Below, in pieces: positions 46,107 through 63,323 of a stretch of 64,000 nt of DNA. Source of the DNA: Chitinophagaceae bacterium. GTDB lineage: Bacteria > Bacteroidota > Bacteroidia > Chitinophagales > Chitinophagaceae. The stretch spans positions 2,695,571-2,759,570 of the forward strand of contig JAULAZ010000003.1 of assembly GCA_032654705.1 (NCBI GenBank), given 5' to 3'. A program made the translations under genes and the position numbers. Numbering within the stretch: the stretch's first letter is position 1; each line of letters begins with the position of its first letter. The notes below the pieces were generated by a model. That model searched no databases. It was not told the DNA's origin and saw only the letters and a program-made list of their open reading frames with translations.

Positions 46107-49100
46107 CTAATGCGTTTCTTCTGGTTTTGTTGCTGCCGGCATAGTTGCCTCTGCTTCTTTTGCACCACCATTTTTACTTTCTATCACTTCATCAGTATTT
46201 CTCACTTTGGCCAGGTAAGTGATATTGGGCAGCACATGCAATTGCTCCAACACATAAAAACCACGTTGCTTATTTTCTTCACGAACTTTATTCACTGAAC
46301 TTTCTTTATCGTGAGCATTGCCAAACACAATTGCGTTAGTCGGGCAGGCTGTCTGGCAAGCTGTTTTCACATCATCACCGCCCAGCACCCGGTTTTCTTT
46401 CTTGGCGTCCAGTTTGGCAGCCTGTAGTTTTTGAACACAGAATGTACACTTCTCCATTACACCACGGCTGCGAACAGTTACATCAGGGTTTAATACCATC
46501 CTGGTCAAATCATCATTCATCTGTTCAATCACACTATCTAATTTTCCTACTAATTGCTGATCCCTGTTGTTCGGGAAACTGTCTGCTCCTGTATAATCAG
46601 CCCAGTTGAAACGGCGAACTTTAAACGGACAGTTTTGTGCGCAATATCTTGTACCGATACAACGATTATAGGCCATCTGGTTGATACCTTCGGTACTGTG
46701 ATTGGTGGCAGCAACCGGACAAACATTTTCGCAGGGTGCATTATCACAATGCTGGCAAAGCATCGGCTGAAATACAACTCCCTTCAGGCTGTCCGGATTA
46801 TTTTCATCAGAAATAAAATAGCGGTCAATACGAAGCCAGTGCATATCGTGATAACGAAGCACTTCTCTTTTACCAACTACCGGAACATTGTTTTCAGCAT
46901 GACAGGATACTACGCAGGCATTACAACCCGTGCAGCTGTTCATATCAATACTCATTCCCCACTTGATCTCGTGGCTGCGGGTATTTGGATCGGGATATAA
47001 AGTGGCATTAGTACGAAAATCATTGTTGGATTTCTCAAAATATTCATCTGCCAGCTCTTTGCGATATTCCGGAATAACGTCTGGTTCTTTTTTGAAAGTA
47101 GCCAGCGTTGTTTCTCTTACTACTTCCAAACGGCCTTCGTAAGAATTATGTTTTTGAGTTTGTGCAAGCTTATATTTCTTATGCAGATTCGTTGTTGTTA
47201 CGCCGGCCACATGGTAATCAACCGTTGTTCCATTAAAAGATGTCCAGGCGTAAGCATTTTTGCCAACACCGGCTGCTGTCACACCGATACCTTCACTTCT
47301 TCCATAACCAACTGCCACGGCAATGGTATCGGCATTCATTCCCGGAATAACAAGAACAGGTAATTCAACTTTATTCTTACCGATCGTTAATTCAATTACC
47401 GGTTTTTCGGGGTAATACTCATAATCGTTATTCAGTTCAATCCCCAATTCTTTGGCCTTTGCCATAGAAATTAATGCATAGTTGTCCCAAGTGGCTTTTG
47501 AAACCGGATCAGGCAATTCCTGTAACCAGGGATTGCCAGCTTGCGAACCAGTACCAATAGAAACTTTTTGATAAAGCACTATTTCCGTACCCGTTTCTTT
47601 TTTATAGGAAGCAATTGCTGATGAGGCTTCTGCTACCGGCCCGACAGTATACGAACCTGCTGAAGCTGCAGCCGGAGTTTCTTCTTTTATTCCATCCCGC
47701 AATACCTTATTATAATCAGCACCAAGCAGGCCGTTCCAGTATGTTTTAAAATAATCTTCGTAGTCTGTATTAACACCACCTGCCTGTCCGGTAGGCTGGC
47801 TCCATTTTAATAATGAAGTTTGATAAGAACGGGTTTTAAATAATGGATTGATAGTTGGCTGAAGAAAACTGGTTACTCCGCTTTTTGGTTCAGCATCTCC
47901 CCAGCTTTCCAGGTAATGATGTGTGGGAATAAGGTATTCGCAGAGTTCAGTGGTTTCATCCATTTTTCCACTGAACGAAACAGACAGTTTTACTTTTTTT
48001 AATGCCGCTTTAAATCTGTCAGCATTATAATATGTATAAGCGGGGTTAGCATCATAAATCATTAATGTGCCAACAGTTCCTGCTTCCATTTCAGCTATCA
48101 GTTCTTCAATACTGTTGGCGCCGCTGTCAACTCCCTGGCGATAGTTTATTGTGGTACCCCAGTCAATGGTTTTACCAAAAGCACCGATGACATTATTAAT
48201 TGCATTAACAACAACCTGAACATTCTTATCGTTACTTCCGCAAACAACTAATGCAGTGCCAATATTTGCTTTTAAATCTGCTGCAACTTTTTTAATAGCT
48301 GCTTCCAGTTTTGCATCGCTGATGGTTGTTGTTCCTTCCACTCCATTAACTGCATTTAATAAATCCAGTGCTACAGTGCCGGTTTCCGAAAAACGATGTG
48401 TAAATCTTTCATCCGCATTGCTTCCAGTCAGGCTCAGTTGACTTTCAAACTGGTAATGCTTGCTCATGGAAGGATTCTTTTCATCAATCTTTCTTCCTTT
48501 TGAATATCCTCTGGCAAATTCAACCGGGCTGAGCCAGGTACCGAGGAAATCAGCGCCAAGGCTTACAATTACTTTTGCTGCATCAAATTTATATGAAGGA
48601 AGTTTCCTCCCAAACCCGCAGGCTTCATTTGCCAGCAACATACCGCTATAAGAAACGGCATCATATTGAACATGTTTTAGATTGGAAAACTCAGCAATAA
48701 TTTTTTTAGTGGTTGGGGAAACAATTGTTGAACTTAGTAATACCACAGAGCCACCGGCAGCTTTCATCGCATCGCTTACCATCTTATCAAACTGCTCAAA
48801 GGAAGGAACTTCTTCAAATTTATCCTTCACTTTATGTTGAGGGAACTTCAGGCGATACATATCATACAGGTCAAGCACCGAGGCCTGAGCTCTTGCTGAA
48901 GTGCCACCGGCAGCATATAAACTGCCCTCTAATTTATTTTCATCAATTTTAATAGGACGGCCATCTCTTACTTTAGCCACTACCGGTACCACATCTCCAT
49001 CCTGAACATAAGTGGTGGCATAATATTTTGCTACTCCCGGGGTAATGTTTTCCGGTTTGTTGGCATAGGGAATAATATTTCTTACCGGTACTTTACAACT

Positions 49101-49298
49101 GGCAGCCAGCGTAGCGGCGGCGGTACTGAAACCAAGGTACTTTAAGAAATCACGACGAGGAGCTTTGGCATCAATCAGCCCTTTATCATCAAACCCTTCA
49201 AAAGGCAATTCCTCCTGAAATTCATCCAGCGACCTGTTTTTGAAATTCTCCGGGTCGTTCACTTCGCCGAAACTTTGCCAATATTTTTTTTCGCTCAT
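46107..49298 (-). CDS. actB: ACIII subunit ActB (molybdopterin-oxidoreductase-like domain fused to a 4Fe-4S cluster domain)
   Basis: It has a Tat-like RRDFLKYLGFSTAAATLAA and ferredoxin-type Cys clusters (CTGCNACVVSC, CQHCDNAPCENVCP, CIGTRYCAQNCP, ACQTACP). I used the ATG at 49298; the track TTG is at 49307. Confidence 0.9.
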   Translation of the reverse strand: MSEKKYWQSFGEVNDPENFKNRSLDEFQEELPFEGFDDKGLIDAKAPRRDFLKYLGFSTAAATLAASCKVPVRNIIPYANKPENITPGVAKYYATTYVQDGDVVPVVAKVRDGRPIKIDENKLEGSLYAAGGTSARAQASVLDLYDMYRLKFPQHKVKDKFEEVPSFEQFDKMVSDAMKAAGGSVVLLSSTIVSPTTKKIIAEFSNLKHVQYDAVSYSGMLLANEACGFGRKLPSYKFDAAKVIVSLGADFLGTWLSPVEFARGYSKGRKIDEKNPSMSKHYQFESQLSLTGSNADERFTHRFSETGTVALDLLNAVNGVEGTTTISDAKLEAAIKKVAADLKANIGTALVVCGSNDKNVQVVVNAINNVIGAFGKTIDWGTTINYRQGVDSGANSIEELIAEMEAGTVGTLMIYDANPAYTYYNADRFKAALKKVKLSVSFSGKMDETTELCEYLIPTHHYLESWGDAEPKSGVTSFLQPTINPLFKTRSYQTSLLKWSQPTGQAGGVNTDYEDYFKTYWNGLLGADYNKVLRDGIKEETPAAASAGSYTVGPVAEASSAIASYKKETGTEIVLYQKVSIGTGSQAGNPWLQELPDPVSKATWDNYALISMAKAKELGIELNNDYEYYPEKPVIELTIGKNKVELPVLVIPGMNADTIAVAVGYGRSEGIGVTAAGVGKNAYAWTSFNGTTVDYHVAGVTTTNLHKKYKLAQTQKHNSYEGRLEVVRETTLATFKKEPDVIPEYRKELADEYFEKSNNDFRTNATLYPDPNTRSHEIKWGMSIDMNSCTGCNACVVSCHAENNVPVVGKREVLRYHDMHWLRIDRYFISDENNPDSLKGVVFQPMLCQHCDNAPCENVCPVAATNHSTEGINQMAYNRCIGTRYCAQNCPFKVRRFNWADYTGADSFPNNRDQQLVGKLDSVIEQMNDDLTRMVLNPDVTVRSRGVMEKCTFCVQKLQAAKLDAKKENRVLGGDDVKTACQTACPTNAIVFGNAHDKESSVNKVREENKQRGFYVLEQLHVLPNITYLAKVRNTDEVIESKNGGAKEAEATMPAATKPEETH

Positions 49299-49354
49299 GT
49301 ATATCAATTTGATAATTCGAAAATGTGCTGCTTTGCAGATTAACCGGTATTATA

Positions 49355-50620
49355 TTAATAATGACATTTCTGACATTCCAGTCCACCAATATCTTTTACC
49401 GTCACGCTGTCCATTTTACCTGCCTTAATATCATTATGAAACTTCTCGTAAATACTGTAAAACTTATTGCCCTTTCCTGTACTGTAATCAAAGTCCACTT
49501 TAGTTTGGCGGTGACAGTTTACACACCAGCCCATACTCAGTTCTGCTACCTGCTTTACTTCATCCATCGCTGTTATTTCCCCATGGCAGGTCTGGCATTG
49601 TACTTTGCCCGCCCTGATATGTTGTGAGTGATTGAAATAAACATGATCTGGCAGGTTATGAATTTTGATCCATTCAATTGGTTTGGCTTTTGACGGATCC
49701 CATTTGGCCGGATTTTTAGGATCAAACCCTGAAGCTTTATATAGTTTAGCAATCTCGGCAGTTCCGTTTATTTCATCTCCATTTACATCATAAAGTTTTG
49801 GACCTTTGACATATTCACTGATTGCCTTGTGGCAGTTCATGCAAATATTCTCTGCGGGAACACCGGCTGTTTTACTTTCCCAGGCCGAGCCATGACAGTA
49901 TAAACAGTTGATCTGGTTAATACCAGCATGTATTCTGTGCGAATAATAGATTGGCTGTACAGGCTGATACCCTTTCTGGCGGCCCAGTCCAATAGCTCCT
50001 TTGGTTACTAAATATCCTCCTACGATAAAAAGGAGAATAGAAATCATTGCTATGTAAACTTTATTCTTATAAAAAGGAACGGGCTCCGGACGAACAATTC
50101 CTTCCGCATCGTCACTCATTTTTTTCAACTTGCTGTTAACCTGCATTAATATCAGGGCGATGATGGCAAGAATAAGTGAGATAATTCCAAAGATGATCGT
50201 GTTTTGACTATCCTTCTTAGGCCCCCCGGTATCATTGGTAGTCGTTGTAGTAACTAATGGAGTGCTGGTGTATTTTATAATAGCATCGACTTCGGCATTA
50301 GTGAGAGCTGATTCAGGAAATTCCAACATCGGTGCACCAAATTTTTTCTGCAGCCCCATGTAATATTGATCAGATTTCAGGAGGGAATTTACATTCCTGA
50401 GCCATTTGTAAATTTTGGTAATATCTCCATTATATGGATCTCTGTCCAATACGCCCCGCAGTTTTGGACCCGTTAAATCTTTGTCTAACTGGTGGCAGGC
50501 AGCGCACCTGCTATTAAAGAGGGCTTTACCATCCTGTGCCGAAACATTTACAATAGATAAAACGAAAAGAAAAAGAAATAAAATAGTCAGTTTTTGTCCG
50601 GTTGGCTTACAAGGAATCAT
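49355..50620 (-). CDS. actA: ACIII multiheme cytochrome c subunit ActA with an extra N-terminal heme domain
   Basis: 421 aa with six CxxCH motifs (CAACH, CLYCH, CMNCH, CQTCH, CVNCH, CQKCH) and one central TM helix. Confidence 0.85.
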   Translation of the reverse strand: MIPCKPTGQKLTILFLFLFVLSIVNVSAQDGKALFNSRCAACHQLDKDLTGPKLRGVLDRDPYNGDITKIYKWLRNVNSLLKSDQYYMGLQKKFGAPMLEFPESALTNAEVDAIIKYTSTPLVTTTTTNDTGGPKKDSQNTIIFGIISLILAIIALILMQVNSKLKKMSDDAEGIVRPEPVPFYKNKVYIAMISILLFIVGGYLVTKGAIGLGRQKGYQPVQPIYYSHRIHAGINQINCLYCHGSAWESKTAGVPAENICMNCHKAISEYVKGPKLYDVNGDEINGTAEIAKLYKASGFDPKNPAKWDPSKAKPIEWIKIHNLPDHVYFNHSQHIRAGKVQCQTCHGEITAMDEVKQVAELSMGWCVNCHRQTKVDFDYSTGKGNKFYSIYEKFHNDIKAGKMDSVTVKDIGGLECQKCHY

Positions 50621-50912: not shown

Positions 50913-51842
50913 ATGTTTGAGCAATTACAAAAAAAATGGAACGTCGGAGGCCTGCAAATGGCTCTTATCATTAGCACCTTCGCCATTGGAGGTAGCCTTA
51001 CCGGCTATGCGGGCAAAAAAATCATGAATCTGTTAGGTGTGCAACAAGATTGGTTATGGACGGTCGCTTACATCTTGCTTATTATTATTATCTGGCCACT
51101 GGCAGTGTTGCTTATTAGTATTCCATTGGGTCAGTATTCCTTTTTTATAAGCTATATACGAAAGATTGGCAAAAGAATGGGATTGGTTAGTAGTCGGGAG
51201 TCAGTAGACGGGAGTCCGGAAAATCATACGTCACTATTGACTCCTGACTCACGACTCACGACTAATATTGCCATCTTCGCCTCCGGGACTGGATCGAATG
51301 CTCAAAAGATAATTGATTATTTCAGAAATCATTCTTTTATCAAAGTAGCAATCATTGTCAGTAATAATAAAGAAGCAGGCGTTTTACAAATTGCGGCAAA
51401 AGAAAATATCCCTGCCCTGATTATTGAAAAAGAAAAATTCTTCAGCACCGATGTCTATATAAAGGAATTAAAAGAAAAAAAAATCGGTTTAATCGTACTG
51501 GCCGGTTTTCTCTGGAAGGTTCCTGCTATATTAATAAAAGAGTTTCCCGGATATATCATCAATATACACCCTGCTTTGTTACCCAAATTCGGCGGCAGGG
51601 GAATGTATGGACAGGCAGTACATGAAGCGGTAATTACAGGCAAAGAAAAAGAAAGCGGCATTAGCATTCATTATGTGGATGAATTATATGATCATGGTAA
51701 AATAATCTTTCAGGCTAAGTGCCCTGTTCTTGAGAATGATACAGCAGTTTCATTGGCGAAGCGTATTCATGCGCTGGAGCATGAGCATTATTCTGCAGTA
51801 ATAGAAAATCTGATAAAGAAACAACAGTCAAATAAGCCGTAA
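50913..51842 (+). CDS. purN: Phosphoribosylglycinamide formyltransferase (PurN) read in one frame with an upstream small 2-TM membrane-protein module
   Basis: The PurN domain runs from about 51264 (NIAIFASGTGSNAQ, NIHPALLP, HYVDELYDHG). The N-terminal ~90 aa look like a separate small membrane protein. The two are joined through a palindromic repeat with no in-frame stop. Internal candidate starts are the ATG at 51177 and the TTG at 51237. Confidence 0.75.
   Translation: MFEQLQKKWNVGGLQMALIISTFAIGGSLTGYAGKKIMNLLGVQQDWLWTVAYILLIIIIWPLAVLLISIPLGQYSFFISYIRKIGKRMGLVSSRESVDGSPENHTSLLTPDSRLTTNIAIFASGTGSNAQKIIDYFRNHSFIKVAIIVSNNKEAGVLQIAAKENIPALIIEKEKFFSTDVYIKELKEKKIGLIVLAGFLWKVPAILIKEFPGYIINIHPALLPKFGGRGMYGQAVHEAVITGKEKESGISIHYVDELYDHGKIIFQAKCPVLENDTAVSLAKRIHALEHEHYSAVIENLIKKQQSNKP
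51188..51264. repeat. Imperfect palindromic element (agtcgggagtcagtagacgggagtc ... gactcctgactcacgactcacgact)
   Basis: The two ~26-nt arms are approximate reverse complements around a 22-nt loop. The element is translated as SSRESVDGSPENHTSLLTPDSRLTT in the fused ORF. Confidence 0.55.
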
Positions 51843-52717: not shown

Positions 52718-52845
52718 CTCTTCTATGTAATTTTGCAACGTCAATCCGAAAAAGAAAAGTAAATTACTTTTCTTAATTCCATTATTCATCTATTCCCTGC
52801 GAAATAAAAACATTCATTCCTGTTTTTCACAGCTAAACGTTATGT

Positions 52846-54369
52846 ATGAAAAAAAATCTTATCATCCTGCTTTTTGTTTTTACACAAACAGGATTTGCTC
52901 AAAACGATTCGGTTCCATCATTTGTAAAAGACAGCCTTGACTCTTATGTAAACAGGGCCTTATCCGACTGGCAGATTCCCGGGGCTTCTGTTTGCATTGT
53001 AAAAAATGGAAAAGTTGTCATGATGAAAGGCTATGGTGTAAAAGAAACAGGAACGGATGACAAAGTGGATGAAAACACATTATTCATGATCGGCAGCAAC
53101 AGCAAGGCCTTTACTGCAACAGCTTTAGCTATGCTTGATGCAGAAAAGAAATTAAGCCTTGATGATAAAGTACAAAAATGGTTGCCGGATTTTAAGCTAT
53201 ATGATCCATGGGTGGCTAAAGAAGCTCTTATAAGAGATTTGCTTTGTCATCGCCTTGGCTTTGAAACTTTCCAGGGAGATTTTATGTACTTCGATTCAGA
53301 TTTAACTACAGCTGAAGTAAGGGAAAAGATGGGAAAGCTGAAGCCCCTGTATAGCTTTCGCAGCAAGTGGGGATATACCAACTGCGCTTTTATGACTGCC
53401 GGCGAAATTATTCCGAAAGTAACGGGAAAGAGTTGGGCTGATTTTGTAACGGAAAGAATTTTCAAACCGCTTGGTATGAATAATACGTTGGCATTGTCAA
53501 AAGACATAAAAGCTGCTGGCAACAAATGTTCGGCACACACGGTAGTCATGGGTGAGTTGAAAAAAATTCCTTACGGAAATATTGACAACCTTGCCCCGGC
53601 CGGCAGTATTTCGTCAAGTGCAAACGATATGGGTAAATGGGTGATGATGCTGCTAAACAATGGAAAGCTGGACGGGAAACAAATAATTCCTGCCGCTGCC
53701 ATTGCACAAACCAGAATGCCACAATCTATATTAGGCAATGGCGGACACATGTTCAATAAATCACATTTCAGCTTATATGGTCTTGGCTGGTTTTTAGAAG
53801 AATATGCCGGAAGAAAAATAGTAGCACACACCGGCGGTGTAAATGGATTTGTGACCAGCGTATGTTTGATTCCCGAAGAAAAATTGGGCATCATTGTATT
53901 AACCAACACCGATGCCAATAATTTTTACGAAGCGCTGCGCAATGAAATTGAAGATGCTTATCTCGGGTTGCCTTATCGCAATTACAGTAAAATTTATCTC
54001 AGTTTCCAACAGGCTGATGAGAAAGAAAAAGAAAATCAATGGAAGGCCACGAGGGATACTGTTGCCATGATTCCAAAAACATATTTACCACTTTCATCTT
54101 ATGCGGGAGAATATATGCATGAGGTATATGGTAAAATGAATATAAAGATTGAAGAAGGCAAGCTTATCATGCGGTTTGAACATCACAAAGGAAGATATGG
54201 CCTGCTGGAGCCTTTGGGAGGTAATCGTTTCTTCTGTACTTACAACGACCCGCTATATGGAATGAAAAAATTAGAATTTACTGTCGCTGACAAAAAAGTA
54301 AAATCATTAACTGTTAAAGTGGCCGACTTTGTTGAGTTTACTCCGTATCAATTTATAAAAACAAAATAA
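52846..54369 (+). CDS. Secreted serine hydrolase of the beta-lactamase / PBP (class C-like) family
   Basis: Signal peptide ending in FAQ. It has the SxxK motif in IGSNSKAFTA, a YTN-like YxN motif (WGYTNCAF) and HTGG in place of KTG. Confidence 0.85.
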   Translation: MKKNLIILLFVFTQTGFAQNDSVPSFVKDSLDSYVNRALSDWQIPGASVCIVKNGKVVMMKGYGVKETGTDDKVDENTLFMIGSNSKAFTATALAMLDAEKKLSLDDKVQKWLPDFKLYDPWVAKEALIRDLLCHRLGFETFQGDFMYFDSDLTTAEVREKMGKLKPLYSFRSKWGYTNCAFMTAGEIIPKVTGKSWADFVTERIFKPLGMNNTLALSKDIKAAGNKCSAHTVVMGELKKIPYGNIDNLAPAGSISSSANDMGKWVMMLLNNGKLDGKQIIPAAAIAQTRMPQSILGNGGHMFNKSHFSLYGLGWFLEEYAGRKIVAHTGGVNGFVTSVCLIPEEKLGIIVLTNTDANNFYEALRNEIEDAYLGLPYRNYSKIYLSFQQADEKEKENQWKATRDTVAMIPKTYLPLSSYAGEYMHEVYGKMNIKIEEGKLIMRFEHHKGRYGLLEPLGGNRFFCTYNDPLYGMKKLEFTVADKKVKSLTVKVADFVEFTPYQFIKTK

Positions 54370-54371
54370 CG

Positions 54372-55577
54372 ATGAACATTTTTTCCCGACATTCTCTTTT
54401 GCTTTTTATCCTGTTCACCTCAGCAACTGCTTTTGCCCAACGGTCAAAAAAAATTCATTTCAAATCTGTTTTAATAGATACCCATAATGACTTTCCTGAA
54501 AAAGCCCTTGACAAAGGTTTAAGTTTTGATCAGTCATTAAAGGGTAAAACACATTCTGATCTGCAACGGATGAAAGAAGGTGGTGTGGATGCACAATTTT
54601 TTTCAATCTGGTGCGATGGACAGGAAAAAGCACCCTATGCTATGGCCAACCGGCAGATGGATACAGTAATGGCGTGGACCAACCGTAATCCGGATAAAAT
54701 GGGACAGGCATTTACGGCGAAAGACATCATTAAAATTACCAAACAAAAAAAGCTCGCCGTGTTATTTGGCGTTGAAGGTGGCCACATGATAGAAAATGAT
54801 TTAGGCAAATTAGATGCGCTTTATAAAAGAGGCGTCCGATATATGACACTTACCTGGAACAATTCTACTGATTGGGCTACATCGGCAGCATACGAAGCTT
54901 CCCCAAACCCCTCACAAGAAGGGGCTTTAGAACCCGAAAGAAAGAAAGGGCTTACTGATTTTGGAAAACAAGTTGTTCATCATATGAATGAACTTGGAAT
55001 GCTGATTGATTTATCACATGTAGGCGAACAGACATTCTGGGATGTAATTAATACCACAACAAAACCAGTTCTTGTTTCTCATAGTTGTGTATACAAACTT
55101 TGTCCGCACCGGAGAAACTTAAAAGATGAACAGATAAAAGCAGTGGCAAAGAATGGCGGTGTTATCCATCTTAATTTTTACAGCGGTTTCCTAGACTCCA
55201 CTTTTGAAACAAGAAGCGATGCGTTCATTGAAAAACATAAAATAGAAATGGATTCACTAAAGAAAATAAACCCTGAGCCTTATTTTATGCAGTTTTATCT
55301 CTTTGATAAATATCCGGATGAAGTAAAGGGGTTGCGACCGCCATTATCATTGCTGCTTGACCATCTTGATTACATTGTAAAATTAGTGGGAGTGGATTAT
55401 GCAGGTCTTGGCAGCGATTTCGACGGCGTTAATTCATTGCCAGAGGGATTGGAAGGTGTGGAAGACTTTCCAAAGATCACAGAAGAATTGGTGAAAAGAG
55501 GATATAGTAAGAAAGATATCCGGAAAATTCTGGGTGGCAATTTGCTTCGGGTGTTGAAGGCGAATGAAGTAAAATAA
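54372..55577 (+). CDS. Secreted membrane-dipeptidase family enzyme (peptidase M19)
   Basis: Signal peptide ending in FAQ. Motifs are IDTHND, FGVEGGH, MTLTWNN, IDLSHV and GSDFDG. It carries an in-frame GC-rich hairpin repeat at 54901-54924. Confidence 0.9.
   Translation: MNIFSRHSLLLFILFTSATAFAQRSKKIHFKSVLIDTHNDFPEKALDKGLSFDQSLKGKTHSDLQRMKEGGVDAQFFSIWCDGQEKAPYAMANRQMDTVMAWTNRNPDKMGQAFTAKDIIKITKQKKLAVLFGVEGGHMIENDLGKLDALYKRGVRYMTLTWNNSTDWATSAAYEASPNPSQEGALEPERKKGLTDFGKQVVHHMNELGMLIDLSHVGEQTFWDVINTTTKPVLVSHSCVYKLCPHRRNLKDEQIKAVAKNGGVIHLNFYSGFLDSTFETRSDAFIEKHKIEMDSLKKINPEPYFMQFYLFDKYPDEVKGLRPPLSLLLDHLDYIVKLVGVDYAGLGSDFDGVNSLPEGLEGVEDFPKITEELVKRGYSKKDIRKILGGNLLRVLKANEVK
54901..54924. repeat. GC-rich hairpin repeat, copy G, in frame inside the dipeptidase CDS
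   Basis: ccccaaacccctcacaagaagggg, translated as PNPSQEG. Confidence 0.55.
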
Positions 55578-55710: not shown

Positions 55711-55719
55711 TTTTCATTT

Positions 55720-56487
55720 ATGGAAGTACATGCACACACTCATACGCCAAGAAAAAAATGGACCCATTATTTTTTTGAATTCTTTATGCTTTTCCTGGCT
55801 GTGACACTTGGTTTTTTTATGGAAAACCAGCGGGAGCATATCGTTGAAAAAAAGAGAGCCCACCAGTTTTTGCAAAGTATGTTGCTGGATGTACGAACGA
55901 ATATGAAAAACCTGGACTCGCTGATGCAACAAGACCGTGGGATCATTGTCAATCATGATTTGCTGGTAAATTGGTTATTGGCCGACAGCTCAACAATAGA
56001 CAGGGCAGCTTTTTCGAAAAAAATGGGAGCCGTTTGGGTAAGAAATTTTCTGGTGCGGAAAGAAACGTATGAGCAAATGAAATCCTCCGGTTCGCTGCGT
56101 TATGTAGGTGATATTGAATTCCTGAAAAAAATGATGGACTATGAACGCATCACCAATTTTGCGCAATACCGGAACCAGGAGTTTGAAAAAAAATATTATA
56201 CAGAGTTATTTATTCCTGCTCTTTACAGAAGCTATGATCTCACCTGCCAGATCAACCTGGACACAAGCAATCATTCCGATCCATTCAAAATGGAAAAGGT
56301 AGCTCGCCACCATGATGTGCTGAGCGGAAATGATGCAGCCATTTTTCGTCATGATATGGGTGCTGCTTTGACATTGCGATTGGAAAGATTGAGAAGAAGT
56401 CTCGATGCGTTCAGGAATGCAAGAACGGCATGTGTAGAAATGGAGCAATTAATAATGAAACAATTGGGGGGAAAAATTAAAGATTAA
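55720..56487 (+). CDS. Paralog 1 of an uncharacterised HxHxH-N-terminus single-TM protein family
   Basis: 255 aa, starting MEVHAHTHTPRKKWTHYFFEFFMLFLAVTLGFFMENQREH. It is the most divergent member and lacks the C-terminal EYHL. Confidence 0.7.
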   Translation: MEVHAHTHTPRKKWTHYFFEFFMLFLAVTLGFFMENQREHIVEKKRAHQFLQSMLLDVRTNMKNLDSLMQQDRGIIVNHDLLVNWLLADSSTIDRAAFSKKMGAVWVRNFLVRKETYEQMKSSGSLRYVGDIEFLKKMMDYERITNFAQYRNQEFEKKYYTELFIPALYRSYDLTCQINLDTSNHSDPFKMEKVARHHDVLSGNDAAIFRHDMGAALTLRLERLRRSLDAFRNARTACVEMEQLIMKQLGGKIKD

Positions 56488-56492
56488 CTTAT

Positions 56493-57236
56493 ATGGAAGT
56501 ACATGCACACACACATACGGAAAGGAAAAAATGGACCCATTATTTCTGGGAGTTTTTAATGCTGTTCCTTGCTGTGTTCTGCGGGTTTTTGGCAGAGAAC
56601 ATAAGAGAGCATTCCGTGGAAAGACACAGGGAAAAAGAATACATGGTTGCGCTGATCAAAGACTTACAAAGTGACATTACCGGGTTAAGTGATGCAGCTG
56701 CTACAAAATTGAAAAGAATCGCAATGGCCGATTCAATCAATCATCTTTTTGAAAAAGGAGATTTCAAAAACTCTTCGGCTGAAATTTATTTTTTAGGAGC
56801 CCACCTGGGATTCCGGTCCTATTTTAATCCGAACGAAGGCACGATACAGCAATTGAAAAATGCAGGAGGCCTGCGGCTGATAAAAAAAAGAGATGTGGTG
56901 GACAGCCTGCAGCGCTACACAAGCTTCATGCAGGAGTTTCTAAAGTTGCAGGAGCTGGAAGAAAACCAGCTGGAAGAATATATAAAAACAATGAGCAATG
57001 TTTTTGATGCCACTGTTTTGAACCAAATGCTTCCGGGCAAGGGAAAACCAGGTGTTACCAAGTCTGCTGTCAATCTCCCCCTAATGACAGATGATCCGCA
57101 AAAAATTAATGACCTGAACATGAATATCCTTCTCATAAAAGCTAACCGGATGAGTCAACTGGAATATTTTTTGGTGTTAAACAATTATTCCACTTCCCTG
57201 ATTCGTCAGATTAAAGAAGAGTATCACCTGAAATAA
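56493..57236 (+). CDS. Paralog 2 of the same family
   Basis: 247 aa, starting MEVHAHTHTERKKWTHYFWEFLMLFLAV. It has the mid motif QQLKNAGGLRLIKKRDVVDS and the C-terminus EEYHLK. It starts 5 nt after the stop of paralog 1. Confidence 0.75.
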   Translation: MEVHAHTHTERKKWTHYFWEFLMLFLAVFCGFLAENIREHSVERHREKEYMVALIKDLQSDITGLSDAAATKLKRIAMADSINHLFEKGDFKNSSAEIYFLGAHLGFRSYFNPNEGTIQQLKNAGGLRLIKKRDVVDSLQRYTSFMQEFLKLQELEENQLEEYIKTMSNVFDATVLNQMLPGKGKPGVTKSAVNLPLMTDDPQKINDLNMNILLIKANRMSQLEYFLVLNNYSTSLIRQIKEEYHLK

Positions 57237-57330
57237 AAAACCATGATAAATGCTGTATGCTAAATTTTGAATTCCCTGTCAATTTGAAATTCATATAACA
57301 TTCAGCAATTAAAATTCAAAATAATAAATT

Positions 57331-58068
57331 ATGGAAGTACATGCACACACCCATACCGCCCGAAAAAGATGGACCCACTATTTCTGGGAATTTTTTATGC
57401 TGTTCCTTGCCATTACCCTTGGATTTTTTATGGAAAACCAACGGGAGCATTATGTAGAAAGAGAACGGGAAAAGCAATACATCAATTCTATGATCAATGA
57501 CCTGAAAACGGATACCGCTTTCTTTTCATCCGCCATTGCTTCAAACAGTGCCAACCAGCTCAGAATGGATTCACTGAAAATGCTGCTGAAAAATTATACC
57601 TGGGGTCATCCCACTGTTGATATCTATTACCTGGCACGAAGGATCACCTACCTGAGTGAACGGATGCAATACAATAACCGGACATTTGAGCAACTGAAAA
57701 ATTCTGGCGGGCTGCGACTTATCCGCCGCCATAATATCCTGGATTCAATCAGCCAGTATTACGAATCGCTGAGATGGATGGATGTAGAGATTGAACAAAA
57801 AGCCCAGTTGATCAGTAACCTTGTTTTTGCCAATGAAGAAATGTTTGATGCCTGGACTATGATTGCTATTTCTGAATCGGGGTTTAACCGACCTTCAGAA
57901 ACACCTCCGCTGCTTCAGAATGACAAGCTGGTGTTGAACAGGTATATTTACCGTTTGGGGTTTTTTAAAGCCGTAGACAATTCTATACTATCCAAAACAA
58001 AAGAAGAATTTCTGCCCAATGCCATTCGGCTGATCGGGTTATTAAGATCGGAATATCATCTGAATTGA
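57331..58068 (+). CDS. Paralog 3 of the same family
   Basis: 245 aa, starting MEVHAHTHTARKRWTHYFWEFFMLFLAI. It has the mid motif EQLKNSGGLRLIRRHNILDS and the C-terminus SEYHLN. Confidence 0.75.
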   Translation: MEVHAHTHTARKRWTHYFWEFFMLFLAITLGFFMENQREHYVEREREKQYINSMINDLKTDTAFFSSAIASNSANQLRMDSLKMLLKNYTWGHPTVDIYYLARRITYLSERMQYNNRTFEQLKNSGGLRLIRRHNILDSISQYYESLRWMDVEIEQKAQLISNLVFANEEMFDAWTMIAISESGFNRPSETPPLLQNDKLVLNRYIYRLGFFKAVDNSILSKTKEEFLPNAIRLIGLLRSEYHLN

Positions 58069-58138
58069 GAGGAGCAATAAGCTGTTAGCTGCGGGTCACA
58101 AGAAAAAAATAACTAAAAATCAATAACAAGCTACCAAT

Positions 58139-58876
58139 ATGGAAGTACATGCACACACTCACACCGAAAGAAAAAAATGGCACCATTACTTTTGGGAATT
58201 TTTTATGCTGTTCCTGGCGGTTACGCTTGGGTTTTTTGTAGAAAACCAACGGGAGCATCTGGTGGAGCATCGCAGAGAAAAAGAATCCATGGTTTCTCTT
58301 GTAAAAGACCTTGAACTGGACACTGCACAATTGTCAAGGATCAGAAACTACCGTCTCGATAAGTTACATACAATAGATTCATTAATCATGTTCTTTGTGG
58401 ACCATCCCGGTGGAGTAGTCCCTGCTTATGGATATACATTAGCGAAAAAACTTTTCGGACATGCCGCTTTTTTCCAAAATAGCGGCACACTCGACCAGTT
58501 AAAAAATGCAGGTGGGCTTCGATTAATCCGGCACAGAAATGCAGTTGACTCCATTGAGTCCTATGACCAGCAGGTAAAACGTATTGCTTTGCGGGATATT
58601 TATGAAACTAATTTTTTTATTGACAATAACAAACTTCTTGAGCAATTATTTGATGGTAGGGCCTTGTTAAAAATTTATGCAGATACCACTTATTATAAGA
58701 AGCCTGTATCTCCGTCGGCTGCAATAAAACTGAATGAACAATATGCAGGCGAATACCTGAATAGCCTGAGAACTTTTCAATTTTTGGTGCGGCAGAATAT
58801 GGAACTTCAAGCAACGGTTAAGGCAAAAGCTGCCCGCCTGATCACATTGATCAAAAAAGAATATCACCTGGATTAA
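58139..58876 (+). CDS. Paralog 4 of the same family
   Basis: 245 aa, starting MEVHAHTHTERKKWHHYFWEFFMLFLAV. It has the mid motif DQLKNAGGLRLIRHRNAVDS and the C-terminus KEYHLD. Confidence 0.75.
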   Translation: MEVHAHTHTERKKWHHYFWEFFMLFLAVTLGFFVENQREHLVEHRREKESMVSLVKDLELDTAQLSRIRNYRLDKLHTIDSLIMFFVDHPGGVVPAYGYTLAKKLFGHAAFFQNSGTLDQLKNAGGLRLIRHRNAVDSIESYDQQVKRIALRDIYETNFFIDNNKLLEQLFDGRALLKIYADTTYYKKPVSPSAAIKLNEQYAGEYLNSLRTFQFLVRQNMELQATVKAKAARLITLIKKEYHLD

Positions 58877-58886
58877 CAATAGCTGT

Positions 58887-61118
58887 ATGAAAAAATTATT
58901 CTTTCTCCTTGTACTGCCCGTTCAACTCTTTGCCCAGAATTTTTCCAAAGAAGAAATTTCCCGATGGGAAAAACAATCTGAACAAGTAACTATCATAAGA
59001 GATAACTGGGGCATCCCGCATATCTATGGCAAAACAGATGCTGATGCTGTTTTCGGACTGATGTATGCCCAATGCGAAGATGATTTTAAGCGGGTAGAGA
59101 TGAACTATATTGAAAAGCTGGGAAGGATGAGTGAAGTAAAAGGCGAAACTGAATTATATTACGACCTCCTTATCCGGATGATTATTGATTCTTCAGATGC
59201 GATTACGGATTATAAAAAATCTCCCGGCTGGTTGAAAAAACTCTGCAACGCATTTGCTGATGGCATTAATTATTATATATATAAACATCCGGACGATAAG
59301 CCGGTATTGCTTTCCCGTTTCAAATCCTGGTATCCTTTATTATGGACAGATGGAAGCATCGGCGCTATCAATACTGCAGACCTTAATGCCTCTGATCTGA
59401 AAAATCTTTATTCCGATACAAATGATATTAGTCATGCCGGGCCTGACCCGGCATCTTTCTCACAAAAAGTAAGAGAAGAAGATGACCCAACCGGCTCCAA
59501 TGGCTTCGCTTTTTCTCCATCAATAACAGAATCGCATAATGCCATTTTATATATCAACCCGCATGTTACTTTTTATTTTCGCCCGGAAGTGCATATGGTG
59601 AGTGAAGAAGGATTAAATGTTTACGGAGCTGTTACCTGGGGTCAGTTCTTCGTGTACCAGGGCTTTAATGAACATGGCGGATGGATGCATACCAGCAGCT
59701 ATGTGGATGCGGCAGATACCTACATTGAAAAATTATCGAAAAAAAACAATGAATGGGTGTATGAGTATGATGGCAAACAAAAACCGGTGAAGGAAGAAAA
59801 AATTGTATTAAAATATAAAAGCGGAAATGAAATTAAATCAAAAACTATTGATGCATTATTCACTCGTCATGGCCCCATCATGGCAAAACGAAATGGCGAT
59901 TACCTGAGTGTAAGGGCTGATAATAGAATCTTGAATGGCCTGGTACAATGCTGGCAACGGAATAAAACAACCAGCTTTGATGATTTTAAAAAAACACTGG
60001 ATTTAAAAGGAAATATCTCCAACAACACCGTGTATGCCGATGCGGAAGGCAATATTGCTTACTGGCATGGCAACCGCATTCCTGAACGAGATACAAAATA
60101 CGACTGGAGCAAGCCGGTGGATGGAACAACCCCCGCCACAGAATGGAAAGGATATCATAGCATCAGTGAAATAGTTCAATGTATTAATCCGCCGAATGGC
60201 TGGCTGCAGAATTGTAATTCCACTCCTTTTACCGTGGCCGGAACTAACAGTCCGAAAAAAGAAAACTATCCCAACTACATGGCGCCTGACGGAGAAAATT
60301 TCCGCGGCATCAATGCGGTGAGAGTTTTAAATGAAGAGAAAAAATATACTATTGATAAAGTAATTCAAGCCGGGTATGATACACGTCTTTCAGCATTTGA
60401 AGTATTGATTCCAGCTCTTGTAAAAGCATTTGATAACAGTGTTTCTTATCAGGATTCATTGTATGCATATCTCATCGGTCCGGTGACGCTGCTAAAACAC
60501 TGGAATTATAAATGTGGTGAAAATTCAATCGCTACCACACTGGCTGTGGAGTGGGGACAAAAATTATTGCCCGCTATCTTCCGCACCAAAGTGGTGGGCG
60601 ATGAAGAAGATGACCAGGTAAACAGGACAAAACAATTTGCCGCTACTGCATTGCCACAGGAGTTACTTGAACCGATGATGACTACCATTAATGATCTCAA
60701 TGAAAAATTTGGGCGATGGCAGATGCCCTGGGGAAAGATTAACCGCTTCCAGCGCATTTCATCTGACATCGATAATAAATTTAACGACAACAAAGCAAGC
60801 ATCCCTGTTGGTTTTGTATCTTCCACATGGGGAATGCTGCCTTCTTATACCAGCAAAATATTTCCCGATACTAAAAAAAGATATGGCGTAAATGGAAATA
60901 GTTTTATTTGCGCTGTAGAATTTGTCCGCAAGGACTCCTTTGGAGGCAAAAGAATAAAAGCAAAATCATTACTGGCCGGCGGAGAAAGTGGCGATGAGAA
61001 CTCCAAACATTTTTTTGACCAGGGAATGATGTACAGCAAAGGACAGTTCAAAGATGTATTGTTTTACAAAGAAGATGTGCTGAAGCATGCAGAGAGAAGT
61101 TATCATCCGGGAGAATAA
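58887..61118 (+). CDS. Secreted penicillin/cephalosporin/AHL acylase family protein (Ntn hydrolase, peptidase S45)
   Basis: 743 aa with a signal peptide ending in FAQ. It has the N-terminal RDNWGIPHIYGKTDADAVFGLMYAQCEDDF and the internal GSNGFAF, the expected autoproteolytic Ser nucleophile context. Confidence 0.85.
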   Translation: MKKLFFLLVLPVQLFAQNFSKEEISRWEKQSEQVTIIRDNWGIPHIYGKTDADAVFGLMYAQCEDDFKRVEMNYIEKLGRMSEVKGETELYYDLLIRMIIDSSDAITDYKKSPGWLKKLCNAFADGINYYIYKHPDDKPVLLSRFKSWYPLLWTDGSIGAINTADLNASDLKNLYSDTNDISHAGPDPASFSQKVREEDDPTGSNGFAFSPSITESHNAILYINPHVTFYFRPEVHMVSEEGLNVYGAVTWGQFFVYQGFNEHGGWMHTSSYVDAADTYIEKLSKKNNEWVYEYDGKQKPVKEEKIVLKYKSGNEIKSKTIDALFTRHGPIMAKRNGDYLSVRADNRILNGLVQCWQRNKTTSFDDFKKTLDLKGNISNNTVYADAEGNIAYWHGNRIPERDTKYDWSKPVDGTTPATEWKGYHSISEIVQCINPPNGWLQNCNSTPFTVAGTNSPKKENYPNYMAPDGENFRGINAVRVLNEEKKYTIDKVIQAGYDTRLSAFEVLIPALVKAFDNSVSYQDSLYAYLIGPVTLLKHWNYKCGENSIATTLAVEWGQKLLPAIFRTKVVGDEEDDQVNRTKQFAATALPQELLEPMMTTINDLNEKFGRWQMPWGKINRFQRISSDIDNKFNDNKASIPVGFVSSTWGMLPSYTSKIFPDTKKRYGVNGNSFICAVEFVRKDSFGGKRIKAKSLLAGGESGDENSKHFFDQGMMYSKGQFKDVLFYKEDVLKHAERSYHPGE

Positions 61119-61143: not shown

Positions 61144-61689
61144 ATGGAACAGACAACACTTGGTATCGGCACACGGTTACAACACACCCATCACGGCCCG
61201 GGTGTGATAGTAGGCATACGTTATGCTACTTATCTTATTTCTTTTATCAATGTGGGAGTAAAAGAAATTGATAAAACAGATGATAAGCTGGATGAAATTA
61301 TTCCGGAAAATGTAACGGAAGAAATAGAAACGCACAGCGAGGTCGAGAAATCGTTACTGAAAATTTTACGACTCTGGGGCGGGTTAACAGAAAATGTGCC
61401 GTTGGGTGATAAATGGCACGGCGGTATGATGCTGCTTCAGCCGGCTGATAAATCACTGAAGCCTAAGGAAATTCCTATTGCTGATTTTTTTCATAAAGTA
61501 GTGATGCTGCATGACCGGCTGCGGGTGCTGGAGCAAAACATCAACAGTAATAAAAAACTGAGCGACGAAGACAAAGCCAACATCCAGCAATACATTACCC
61601 GCTGCTATGGCTCATTGACCACCTTCAATGTGTTATTTAAAAATAAAGAGCAGTGGTTTGTGGGAGAGAAGGGAAGCAAGGAAGATTGA
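61144..61689 (+). CDS. Hypothetical cytoplasmic protein
   Basis: 181 aa with no signal peptide. No motif was recognised. It is tightly packed between the acylase and the D-aminoacylase. Confidence 0.5.
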   Translation: MEQTTLGIGTRLQHTHHGPGVIVGIRYATYLISFINVGVKEIDKTDDKLDEIIPENVTEEIETHSEVEKSLLKILRLWGGLTENVPLGDKWHGGMMLLQPADKSLKPKEIPIADFFHKVVMLHDRLRVLEQNINSNKKLSDEDKANIQQYITRCYGSLTTFNVLFKNKEQWFVGEKGSKED

Positions 61690-61742: not shown

Positions 61743-63323
61743 ATGAAATGGTTGTTTTTTCTTTTACTCTTCCCTTTTTTTGCGGAAGCACAGGACCCGA
61801 TAGCTATCGGGTGTGATATTCTTATTACCAATGGAAAAATTATTGATGGCACCGGTAACAGTTGGTATTATGGAAACATCGCTGTTAAAGACGGAAAAAT
61901 TATTAAGGTTGGAAGAGAAGTGAATCTTTCAGCCAGAAAAATTATTGATGCAAAAGGATTGATTGTGGCTCCCGGTTTTATTGATGTGCATACCCACCTG
62001 GAAGGCGATGAAAGCAAAGACCCCGAAGCAAAAAGTTTTATTTATGACGGCGTAACTACCTGCATTACCGGCAACTGCGGCTCTTCTAATATTGATATCG
62101 GCAAGTATTTAAAATGGATTGATTCATTAAAACTTTCTATCAACATTGCAACACTGATCGGGCATAATGATGTAAGAAAAAAAGTGATGGGCCGTGCCAA
62201 CCGGGATGCAACACCCGATGAAATGAAACAAATGGAAAATATTGTTGACAAAGCAATGAAGGATGGTGCCGTGGGTTTTTCAACCGGGCTGATTTATATA
62301 CCGGGCACTTATACCAAAACTCCTGAGATCGTTGAGCTGGCAAAAATTGCTGCAAGGTATAACGGTGTTTATGCCACACACATGCGGGATGAAGGTGATA
62401 GTGTTACTTATGCCATCAATGAAGCATTGACGATTGGAAGAGAAGCAAAAATTCCGGTGGAGATTTCCCATTTTAAATTAAGTGGTCAGCAAAACTGGGG
62501 ACGCAGCAAAGAAACCGTGCCGATGATTGAAGCGGCGAGAAAAGAAGGGATCGAAGTTACGATTGATCAATACCCTTACACCGCCAGCAGCACTTCCATC
62601 AGCACATTAATACCGGATGAAATACTGGCCGACGGGCAGGACTCTGTTAATGCAAGATTAGAAAAAAGGGAAATAAAAAAATACGTCATCAGTTCTTTGC
62701 TGAAGCGGCTGAAAAAAAGAAAGCTGAAACATTTCAGCTATGCAGTAGTAGCTTATTATTCTCCCGACACCACCTATAATGGCAAAAGCATTGAGCAGAT
62801 CAATTTAATGAAAGGCAAAAAACATAAAAGAAAAGCCGAAGCAGAAACCATTATAGACATTATGAAGACTGGTGGCGCCAGCGCTATATTCCATGGTATG
62901 AGTGAGGAGGATATAAAACGAATTATGAAATACCCGTTCAATATGTTTGCCAGCGATGCCACCATCAGAACATTGGGATCGGGCATGCCGCATCCAAGAG
63001 GTTATGGCACCAATGCAAGAGTGCTGGCAAAATATGTGCGGGATGAAAAAATTATTTCTCTTGAAGAAGCCATCAGAAGAATGACTTCATTACCTGCTCA
63101 GAAATTTCAATTGAACAACCGGGGACTGCTTCGTGAAGGTTACGCTGCCGATATTGTGATCTTTGATGAAAAAGAAGTGCAGGATGTTTCTACGTATGAT
63201 AAGCCGCATGCCTATTCAAAAGGTTTTCATTTTGTATTGGTGAATGGAGTGTTGACAGTGGAAAATGAAAAGCATATCGGTGCAAGGGCAGGTCAAGCAT
63301 TATATGGTCCAGCTGTTCATTAG
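61743..63323 (+). CDS. Secreted N-acyl-D-amino-acid deacylase (D-aminoacylase) family amidohydrolase
   Basis: 526 aa with a signal peptide ending in AEAQ. It has the metal-binding PGFIDVHTH and family-typical segments GFSTGLIYIPG and ISHFK. Confidence 0.85.
   Translation: MKWLFFLLLFPFFAEAQDPIAIGCDILITNGKIIDGTGNSWYYGNIAVKDGKIIKVGREVNLSARKIIDAKGLIVAPGFIDVHTHLEGDESKDPEAKSFIYDGVTTCITGNCGSSNIDIGKYLKWIDSLKLSINIATLIGHNDVRKKVMGRANRDATPDEMKQMENIVDKAMKDGAVGFSTGLIYIPGTYTKTPEIVELAKIAARYNGVYATHMRDEGDSVTYAINEALTIGREAKIPVEISHFKLSGQQNWGRSKETVPMIEAARKEGIEVTIDQYPYTASSTSISTLIPDEILADGQDSVNARLEKREIKKYVISSLLKRLKKRKLKHFSYAVVAYYSPDTTYNGKSIEQINLMKGKKHKRKAEAETIIDIMKTGGASAIFHGMSEEDIKRIMKYPFNMFASDATIRTLGSGMPHPRGYGTNARVLAKYVRDEKIISLEEAIRRMTSLPAQKFQLNNRGLLREGYAADIVIFDEKEVQDVSTYDKPHAYSKGFHFVLVNGVLTVENEKHIGARAGQALYGPAVH

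Follow-up and report, generated by a model that had tools for sequence, protein, structure and literature searches.

A tandem array of His-headed membrane proteins, remotely related to DUF6090, beside secreted hydrolase genes in a Chitinophagaceae genome

The proteins described here have their closest catalogued relatives in DUF6090 (PF19578), an uncharacterised Pfam family of proteins of ~250 aa with a short N-terminal tail and one transmembrane (TM) helix; no paper mentioning it was found in our literature searches. More general resemblances exist with the 4HB_MCP/TarH and CHASE3 sensors, in which an N-terminal TM helix runs into a long helix of an up-down extramembrane bundle, with the bitopic accessory proteins YycH/YycI (with WalK) and MzrA (with EnvZ), which modulate a membrane partner via their TM helix, and with BBH37, a PFam12 protein of Borrelia. 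We have analysed a stretch of 64,000 nucleotides (hereafter the window) from the genome of a Chitinophagaceae bacterium (contig JAULAZ010000003.1, positions 2,695,571 to 2,759,570 of the forward strand) in which four consecutive genes code for paralogous proteins with a common His-rich head and divergent bodies, embedded among genes for secreted hydrolases. Nothing relevant was found in the literature on such arrays or on their combination with hydrolases. What is new here is the homology of this family to DUF6090, the age and constraint of its paralogs and their co-orientation with hydrolase genes, all of which are testable handles on its function.

The four-gene array and its family

The array is on the + strand and consists of the following genes (positions are those of the window; ORF, open reading frame):

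55720..56487, + strand: copy 1, 255 aa, defined by ORF and alignment; the conserved head corresponds to codons 1-48 (55720-55863)
56493..57236, + strand: copy 2, 247 aa, with the head MEVHAHTHTERKKW and TM helix, central QLKNAGGLRLI and C-terminal EYHLK
57331..58068, + strand: copy 3, 245 aa, with its best relatives in the loci at 55-57% identity
58139..58876, + strand: copy 4, 245 aa, used as query for most analyses

The spacers between them measure 5, 94 and 70 nt, in this order, and the first 20 nt of all four genes are the same, ATGGAAGTACATGCACACAC. The proteins are almost identical over residues 1-43 and ~30% identical in the remainder. A preliminary description of this DNA, made from the letters alone, had proposed a tandem array of four paralogs with a conserved head and a variable body, and this is borne out by the ORFs, the spacers and the alignment. 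It was also right in that the C-terminal EYHL is missing from copy 1, which has a different C-terminus while copies 2-4 carry the motif. The central QLKN motif that it took to be common to all four is not, since QLKN(A/S)GGLRLI...DS is found in copies 2-4 and is degenerate in copy 1 (QMKSSGSLRYVG).

The family to which these genes belong is large. With copy 4 as query, 5,582 homologs were retrieved at E<=1e-3 from clusters at 90% identity; the named ones are all 'hypothetical', without a single Pfam domain among them. When 1.84 billion representatives were searched with a profile, 4,378 clusters at 50% identity were obtained, including 1,155 at E<=1e-30 that are nearly all of ~245 aa. From a scan of species-representative genomes, with at least 539 relatives, 78 loci were retained, mainly from metagenome-assembled genomes (MAGs) of Chitinophagaceae, together with Sphingobacteriales, a Flavobacteriales bin, Sediminibacterium and the cultured Aquirufa echingensis. 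Copy number, whose variation had been suggested as a check in the preliminary description, lies between 1 and 24 per locus. Single copies are limited to 8 of the 78 loci, and same-strand arrays reach 24 copies in 20.7 kb (L013), 17 (L005), 16 (L031) and 15 (L040), with at least 28-29 copies per MAG at the maximum. The gaps between consecutive family genes show a sharp mode at 5-7 nt, within which copy 2 falls, starting 5 nt past the stop of copy 1, and 71% of them are 10 nt or shorter, indicating tightly coupled operons. The context upstream of the genes is A/T-rich and G-poor. Other architectures bearing the MEVHxHxH head were absent from ~1 Mb of loci, PADLOC gave no matches and PHROGs no significant ones, and a phage origin was rejected because no relatives were found in 2.9 million viral contigs.

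The head is not a chance resemblance of four neighbours, as 78 other loci provided 413 unique family members and 378 of these have MEVHxHxH. It opens with a His-rich tail (MEVHxHxH..RKKW), continues into a TM helix that has the conserved Glu20 and Glu35 on either side, and closes with a juxtamembrane helix (ENxREHxxE..RE). Among the 413 members, M1, E2, V3, H4, H6 and H8 are each conserved at 96-100%, and likewise K12, K13, W14, Y17, E20, F21, M23-V28, G31, F32, E35, E39, H40, E43 and R46. Past the head, conservation above 85% is reached only at D61, T117, Q120, G125, R128, Y142 and Y242 and the rest is hypervariable; the conserved elements of the body are just the central T..QLKNxGGLRLI..D..Y and the C-terminal EYHL.

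The AlphaFold2 model of copy 4 (predicted local distance difference test, pLDDT, 86; predicted template-modelling score, pTM, 0.72) has a helix over residues 14-88 that includes the TM segment (~17-34), then short elements and the helices 133-170, 173-184 and 200-242. The model of copy 1 has the same topology (pLDDT 77). The proteins are thus of ~250 aa and cross the membrane once, and their body is a predicted helical bundle. DSSP assigned a beta-bridge 93-95/195-198 in the copy 4 model, which would place both loops at the distal end and give an up-down-up-down bundle; we infer from this arrangement that the motif at 117-142 and the C-terminal EYHL would meet at the membrane-proximal base, beside the juxtamembrane helix, leaving the distal part as the variable one. 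The net charge of the TM flanks is +1.7 on the N side (with a mean of 4.5 His in the tail) versus -0.8 on the C side and, by the charge-difference rule, the tail is probably cytoplasmic and the body periplasmic.

With regard to known families, nothing was above threshold in Pfam or NCBIfam for the four window proteins and 45-150 relatives. The PF19578 model did not match the four window proteins at E<=1, and among the relatives it gave sub-threshold matches to 1 of 45 members (E 0.0055) and to 5 of 150 at E<=0.1 (best 8.4e-4), all below the gathering score. A DUF6090-like N-terminus, used as bait only, retrieved genuine PF19578 proteins, and full-length DUF6090 genes were taken from four genomic contexts for a comparison alignment. 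When the family alignment was compared with 16 full-length DUF6090 sequences, hhalign gave a probability of 98.2% (E 3.8e-14, 126 columns), and a shallower alignment of four full-length DUF6090 gave 94.1% (E 1.3e-7). The match begins within the TM helix, whose C-terminal half it covers, and goes on through helix A to the central motif, where T..QLKNSGGLRLI of the family is aligned to t.eel.sSG.l..isN of DUF6090. Profile comparison thus shows the His-headed family to be a remote sister of DUF6090, and the most suitable place for it is within this catalogued but uncharacterised superfamily, as a divergent clade not recognised before. The earlier statement that no characterised domain is recognisable therefore stands, all scans being sub-threshold, while the idea of a family wholly without relatives does not.

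In both families the proteins are of ~250 aa and have a short tail and one TM helix, whose start bears a conserved Glu and whose exit from the membrane is polar (NNWNE in DUF6090, ENxRE in the family). The central motif of DUF6090, T..E..NSGxLxLIS, is the counterpart of T..QLKNSGGLRLI, with SGxLxL(I/V) in common. DUF6090 genes also form same-strand tandem arrays; one in Polaribacter has at least 9 members, and another, in a Saprospiraceae contig, comprises at least 12 genes or gene fragments and immediately follows the genes for Amidohydro_3 and a C45 acyl-hydrolase. The heads are different: DUF6090 has a basic MIKFFRKIRQNLL..KYxKYAIGEI with a MIKFFRKIRQ tail and no His, in contrast to MEVHxHxH..RKKWTHYFWEF. 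The C-terminal EYHL is a feature of the His-headed family, unlike DUF6090; the spacing of 5-7 nt compares with 35-156 nt in the Polaribacter DUF6090 array, and the family is centred on Chitinophagaceae whereas DUF6090 is centred on Flavobacteriaceae or Saprospiraceae. In one Saprospiraceae contig (JADKGI010000011.1, L085 8187-20228) the DUF6090 array is rich in truncated copies (71-157 aa), is accompanied by transposase genes (Y1_Tnp and DDE_Tnp_1) and looks like an array in decay or rearrangement. Fragments of 54-97 aa annotated as 'DUF6090 family' are very common in the databases.

The other resemblances are more distant. As in the 4HB_MCP/TarH and CHASE3 sensors, the N-terminal TM helix would run into the long helix of an up-down bundle, and both kinds of protein would have a conserved membrane-proximal and a variable distal part. 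The matches are faint, with a methyl-accepting chemotaxis protein (MCP) ligand-binding domain at a Foldseek E of 0.47 and a 4HB-MCP protein in BFVD at E 0.15; CHASE3 was matched by one of 150 members (E 0.0013) and Pfam 4HB_MCP by none. Neither in sequence nor in fold does the family match these sensors significantly, and it lacks both their second TM helix and their cytoplasmic signalling domain; its cytoplasmic part would be only ~16 residues, and the last bundle helix is followed at once by EYHLx, where the protein ends (~245 aa). With YycH/YycI and MzrA the family would share a single N-terminal TM anchor, an extracytoplasmic domain and the absence of an output domain of its own, and its highly conserved TM helix suggests contact with a partner within the membrane. 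In contrast to them, it has no partner kinase nearby, it forms arrays of 4-29 paralogs and there is no sequence similarity. The BBH37-type proteins are also multi-copy paralogous helical-bundle envelope proteins encoded in tandem arrays, and their chains rank 2-7 in the Foldseek list at insignificant values (E 0.05-0.08, TM-scores 0.26-0.37), but they are spirochaete lipoproteins without a motif in common with the family.

Several identities were considered and rejected. The frequent sub-threshold matches to YwiC, DUF1980 and Innexin cover the TM helix only and are hydrophobic-segment noise. An anti-phage defence or toxin-immunity array does not fit the negative results with PADLOC, PHROGs and viral contigs, the neighbours, which are Sec-exported catabolic hydrolases, or the ancient paralogs. 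The proteins are not type IV pilin-like, as there is no Gly before the helix (..KKWTHYFWEF), no Gly-1/Glu+5 site, and the body is all-helical instead of alpha/beta. Folded proteins of 250 aa are not the precursors of ribosomally synthesised and post-translationally modified peptides, and the TM core lacks the polar pathway of an M2-like ion channel.

Age of the paralogs and their identical 5' DNA

The closest relative of 98% of the members is in another genome, at a median identity of 71%, whereas the best paralog within the same genome has a median identity of 40% and no such pair exceeds 70%. In ortholog-like pairs the ratio of nonsynonymous to synonymous divergence (dN/dS) is 0.048 in the head and 0.099 in the body. 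These values indicate that the arrays are old and their paralogs individually maintained: the paralogs are ancient and under purifying selection, and the body varies from one paralog to another without evolving fast. The suggestion that the array belongs to a diversified family is thus refuted if diversified means fast-evolving. Ancient and individually constrained paralogs point to many distinct specificities and count against junk or arms-race variation. The lineage of copy 1 is particularly slow, the 120 best matches of copy 1 being all 77-86% identical while the list for copy 4 drops to 52%, and orthologs at ~80% were found in L013, L040, L005 and L052. This type, which lacks EYHL, occurs once per genome in the best-sampled genomes and is the first gene of the array in two independent contigs (L080 and L081). 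In both of them a FAD oxidoreductase of the DAO family (PF01266; L080 8695-9864, L081 3142-4311) is found divergent from the copy-1-type first gene; the DAO family includes D-amino-acid oxidases.

The identity of the 20 nt common to all four copies had been attributed to a functional nucleic-acid element overlapping the start codons or to gene conversion, either of which we now consider very unlikely. The start of the genes is certainly biased along the whole family, with codon 2 being GAA in 98% of the members (background 71%) and codon 3 GTA in 82% (background 33%). At identical residues, identical codons are used somewhat more often within genomes than between them in codons 1-9 (0.65 vs 0.57, with ~0.47 expected) and 10-48 (0.57 vs 0.505), while the two values are equal in the body (0.42 vs 0.42). 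Against both explanations, the synonymous divergence (dS) of orthologs is practically the same in head and body (1.40 vs 1.41), so the comparison along the gene that had been proposed as a check for 5' gene conversion gives no sign of it. Codons 4, 6 and 8 for His (CAT/CAC) vary freely, close to background, indicating that selection is on the amino acid. Among paralog pairs with identical first six residues the DNA is identical in just 20% within genomes and 18% between genomes, and Rfam found no RNA family in the window. The strong bias affects only codons 2-3 and is confined to ~9 nt past the ATG, as expected for the A-rich, unstructured starts of Bacteroidota, whose start regions lack Shine-Dalgarno sites. 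The window genome is the sole case with one 20-mer in all copies, a mild outlier and not a family-wide trait. Equal dS, the lack of an Rfam match and the codon data taken together indicate that the 5' identity is not a discrete nucleic-acid element but mostly the result of selection on the peptide plus a preference for A-rich codons near the start, with at most little local homogenisation. The 5' ends of copies 1 and 4 are each overlapped by an antisense ORF of 80-81 aa (55714-55956 and 58085-58330, both on the - strand), and the two ORFs end in a common peptide (..SVCMYFH). They mirror the DNA that codes for the conserved head, and it is almost certain that neither is a gene.

Hydrolase neighbours and the proposed role

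The array is located within a block of co-oriented genes whose other members, and a candidate promoter, are the following:

52728..52735, + strand: Bacteroidota-type -7 box TAATTTTG, the sole exact + strand box upstream of the block; predicted candidate promoter of the genes from the beta-lactamase-family one to the D-aminoacylase-like one
52846..54369, + strand: beta-lactamase-family (S12-type) serine hydrolase with DUF3471 (Pfam) and a signal-peptide-like N-terminus; first gene of the predicted unit
54372..55577, + strand: M19 dipeptidase (Peptidase_M19, Pfam), signal-peptide-like, 2 nt past the preceding gene and 142 nt before copy 1
58887..61118, + strand: S45 acylase (Penicil_amidase, Pfam), signal-peptide-like, 10 nt past copy 4
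61144..61689, + strand: 181-aa protein with no Pfam match and no signal peptide
61743..63323, + strand: Amidohydro_3 protein (Pfam), D-aminoacylase-like, with a signal-peptide-like N-terminus

The M19, S45 and D-aminoacylase-like neighbours given in the preliminary description are therefore confirmed by Pfam matches. A scan for TAnnTTTG found no exact -7 box in the spacers before copies 1, 3 and 4, and no terminator-like sites were found between genes on the + strand of the window. The single upstream box and the lack of such terminators lead us to predict a single transcription unit from the beta-lactamase-family gene through the array, that is, from 52846 to at least 61118. Scans for sigma-70 promoters and terminators performed at chance level and are unsuited to Bacteroidota. 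Along the window TAnnTTTG is strongly depleted, with 44 matches versus 83.5 +/- 8.7 in shuffled sequences, all of which had more, consistent with selection against spurious promoter boxes. Orthologs of the 181-aa protein, at 80-87% identity, are found immediately downstream of arrays in seven loci (e.g. L038 13861-14403, L056 11510-12052), and its gene may belong to the transcription unit of the array.

Genes inside and flanking the arrays were clustered and annotated with Pfam to find recurrent neighbours. The commonest are members of the Beta-lactamase family (38 genes in 28 loci); the others are Amidohydro_3 (12 loci), HGSNAT/Acyl_transf_3-like membrane proteins (12), penicillin amidase (11), tricorn-like S41 (10), DmpA/S58 (6), a Guanylate_cyc+TPR protein (6-7), M19 (5), DUF418 (5) and DcuC (4). 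Nearly all of these genes share the strand of the arrays. Six hydrolase families (beta-lactamase-family, the D-aminoacylase Amidohydro_3, S45, S41, S58 and M19) account for 40% of the genes directly adjacent to a family gene, 23% of those at distance 2 and ~10% of those four or more genes away. What was noticed in the window, a link to secreted hydrolases, thus extends to other loci, with an odds ratio of 4.8 for adjacency (p 3e-9), values that are uncorrected for the shared ancestry of loci that are not phylogenetically independent. It is found outside Chitinophagales as well, in Sphingobacteriales (L045, L060) and in the cultured Cytophagales Aquirufa (L065). In the latter genome, a three-gene family array has one beta-lactamase-family gene upstream and another directly downstream, which codes for an 838-aa protein with two Beta-lactamase domains (L065 12290-14803); four more family genes are nearby on the opposite strand. 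A multi-pass HGSNAT_cat/Acyl_transf_3-like or DUF418 protein often closes the arrays on the same strand (L031, L037 7311-8540, L042, L027, L028, L072, L076, L080 14686-15876) and is a candidate membrane partner of the family. The Guanylate_cyc+TPR protein, of 640-685 aa, is located inside or next to arrays and is mostly convergent (L060 4594-6648; L080 15978-17894; L005, L017, L022, L027, L039).

A cytoplasmic tail, a periplasmic body and distal variability, as predicted above, suggest that the array could encode a repertoire of modules. We propose tentatively that these would be co-expressed, membrane-anchored periplasmic binding or adaptor modules, each with its own ligand or partner-protein specificity, in which the invariant TM helix and tail (and the base) would provide one common docking or signalling interface. 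The modules would cooperate with the co-transcribed periplasmic enzymes, which would cleave D-amino-acid peptides, N-acyl amino acids and beta-lactam-like amides. We regard such a repertoire, with a common interface and tied to hydrolase processing, as a possible role that falls short of being probable. A broader version is doubtful: the family and DUF6090 together might be an unrecognised envelope system of Bacteroidota, a genome-encoded 'library' of dozens of individually conserved and membrane-anchored recognition modules of the periplasm that would all engage one partner via the invariant TM helix and the cytoplasmic tail, directing, tethering or regulating periplasmic hydrolases of D-amino-acid peptides, N-acyl amino acids and beta-lactam-like compounds. 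Several results weigh against the repertoire. No characterised homolog was found in family, profile or fold searches; sequence-profile searches of the PDB gave no match, and Foldseek searches of PDB and BFVD with the two models gave only insignificant, generic helical bundles. Mean-field direct coupling analysis of 767 sequences was dominated by gap and indel artefacts, with only the couplings 47-135 and 73-148 weakly consistent with the bundle. The K+R counts in the TM flanks are nearly tied (3.0 vs 3.5) and do not settle the topology alone. The neighbourhood has its own difficulties, besides the shared ancestry behind the adjacency values: family genes outnumber hydrolase genes up to 24 to 1, no shared transducer gene consistently adjoining the arrays was found, and neither the HGSNAT/DUF418 genes (~17 loci) nor the cyclase-TPR genes (6-7 loci) are present in the 64-kb window. 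Finally, no consistent pairing of orthologs with a hydrolase type was found, in a single-linkage clustering at 55% that chained too much.

The strong adjacency and co-orientation with secreted hydrolases, the body probably in the periplasm and the predicted inclusion in one unit with the enzymes would also be expected of membrane tethers, inhibitors or immunity-like guards of the neighbouring hydrolases, for example by holding enzymes at the inner membrane or by shielding the cell's own peptidoglycan precursors from D-peptide-cleaving enzymes. This is unlikely given a stoichiometry that can depart from 1:1 by as much as 24 family genes to one hydrolase gene, the existence of arrays without a hydrolase within 10 kb (e.g. 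L040, L015, L055), the lack of consistent placement of orthologous paralogs beside the same enzyme type and the absence of matches to known immunity or defence families. Also unlikely is the reverse topology, with the His tip in the periplasm, the body in the cytoplasm and the hydrolase neighbourhood incidental. It draws on the near tie in K+R counts and on the absence of a conserved disulfide in the body, which has no Cys at all in 61% of the members, but the net charge difference and three basic residues directly before the TM helix favour a cytoplasmic N-terminus, and the strong linkage with exported enzymes fits a periplasmic body.

A different kind of function would be that of subunits: instead of binding independently of one another, the paralogs would associate via the invariant TM and juxtamembrane module in a mixed, hetero-oligomeric stalk or lattice of the envelope, with the copy-1 type as common subunit. 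The extreme conservation of the TM helix and of the stripe E35/E39/E43/E47 plus R38/R46, the 5-7 nt spacing suggestive of coupled, equimolar expression, and the much slower evolution of the copy-1 type, single-copy per sampled genome, are in line with it; a copy number that goes from 1 to at least 29 between genomes is hard to square with a fixed complex, and we hold this assembly to be rather improbable. As for the His residues, the preliminary description had put forward a metal-handling role for an HxHxH tip beside secreted metallohydrolases. H4, H6 and H8 are 96-99% conserved, H16 is common, the tail has 4.5 His on average, selection acts there on the amino acid and M19 and Amidohydro_3 are established Zn enzymes, all of which would suit a tip that binds Zn, Ni or Cu and supplies or senses the metal for nearby metallohydrolases. 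This is highly unlikely, however, as the predicted location of the tail is the cytoplasm while the hydrolases have signal peptides, and the commonest partners (beta-lactamase-family, S45, S41 and S58, four of the six families) are non-metallo enzymes with a Ser/Thr nucleophile (Ser or Ntn hydrolases). Moreover, DUF6090 has the same architecture and arrays without a His tail, so metal binding cannot be the core function of the superfamily.

The superfamily comprises thousands of sequence clusters, with 20-30 genes per genome possible in abundant soil and freshwater Bacteroidota, and it is nameless beyond the DUF6090 label of the sister clade, no structure, literature or proposed function having been found. 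Its homology to DUF6090 makes results transferable between culturable Flavobacteriaceae and Chitinophagaceae, and thousands of 'hypothetical proteins' would be annotated if the His-headed clade had a Pfam or NCBIfam model of its own. The family genes run in the same direction as genes for periplasmic enzymes acting on D-peptides, N-acyl amino acids and beta-lactam-like amides, with which they are probably co-transcribed. If the hydrolase link is functional, it would point to a new organisational layer in the scavenging or detoxification of unusual peptides such as peptidoglycan fragments, non-ribosomal peptides and beta-lactams.

Genes upstream of the block

Two other genes of the window deserve mention. 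At 50913-51842 (+ strand) a formyltransferase (PurN-like, Formyl_trans_N) carries an N-terminal DUF6787 membrane segment, an unusual fusion for an enzyme of purine biosynthesis. At 49355-50620 (- strand) an ORF of 421 aa, in which several CxxCH motifs for haem binding accompany a central TM segment, codes for a multi-haem cytochrome c; it adjoins a 1,066-aa ORF (46107-49307) and is possibly part of a respiratory complex.

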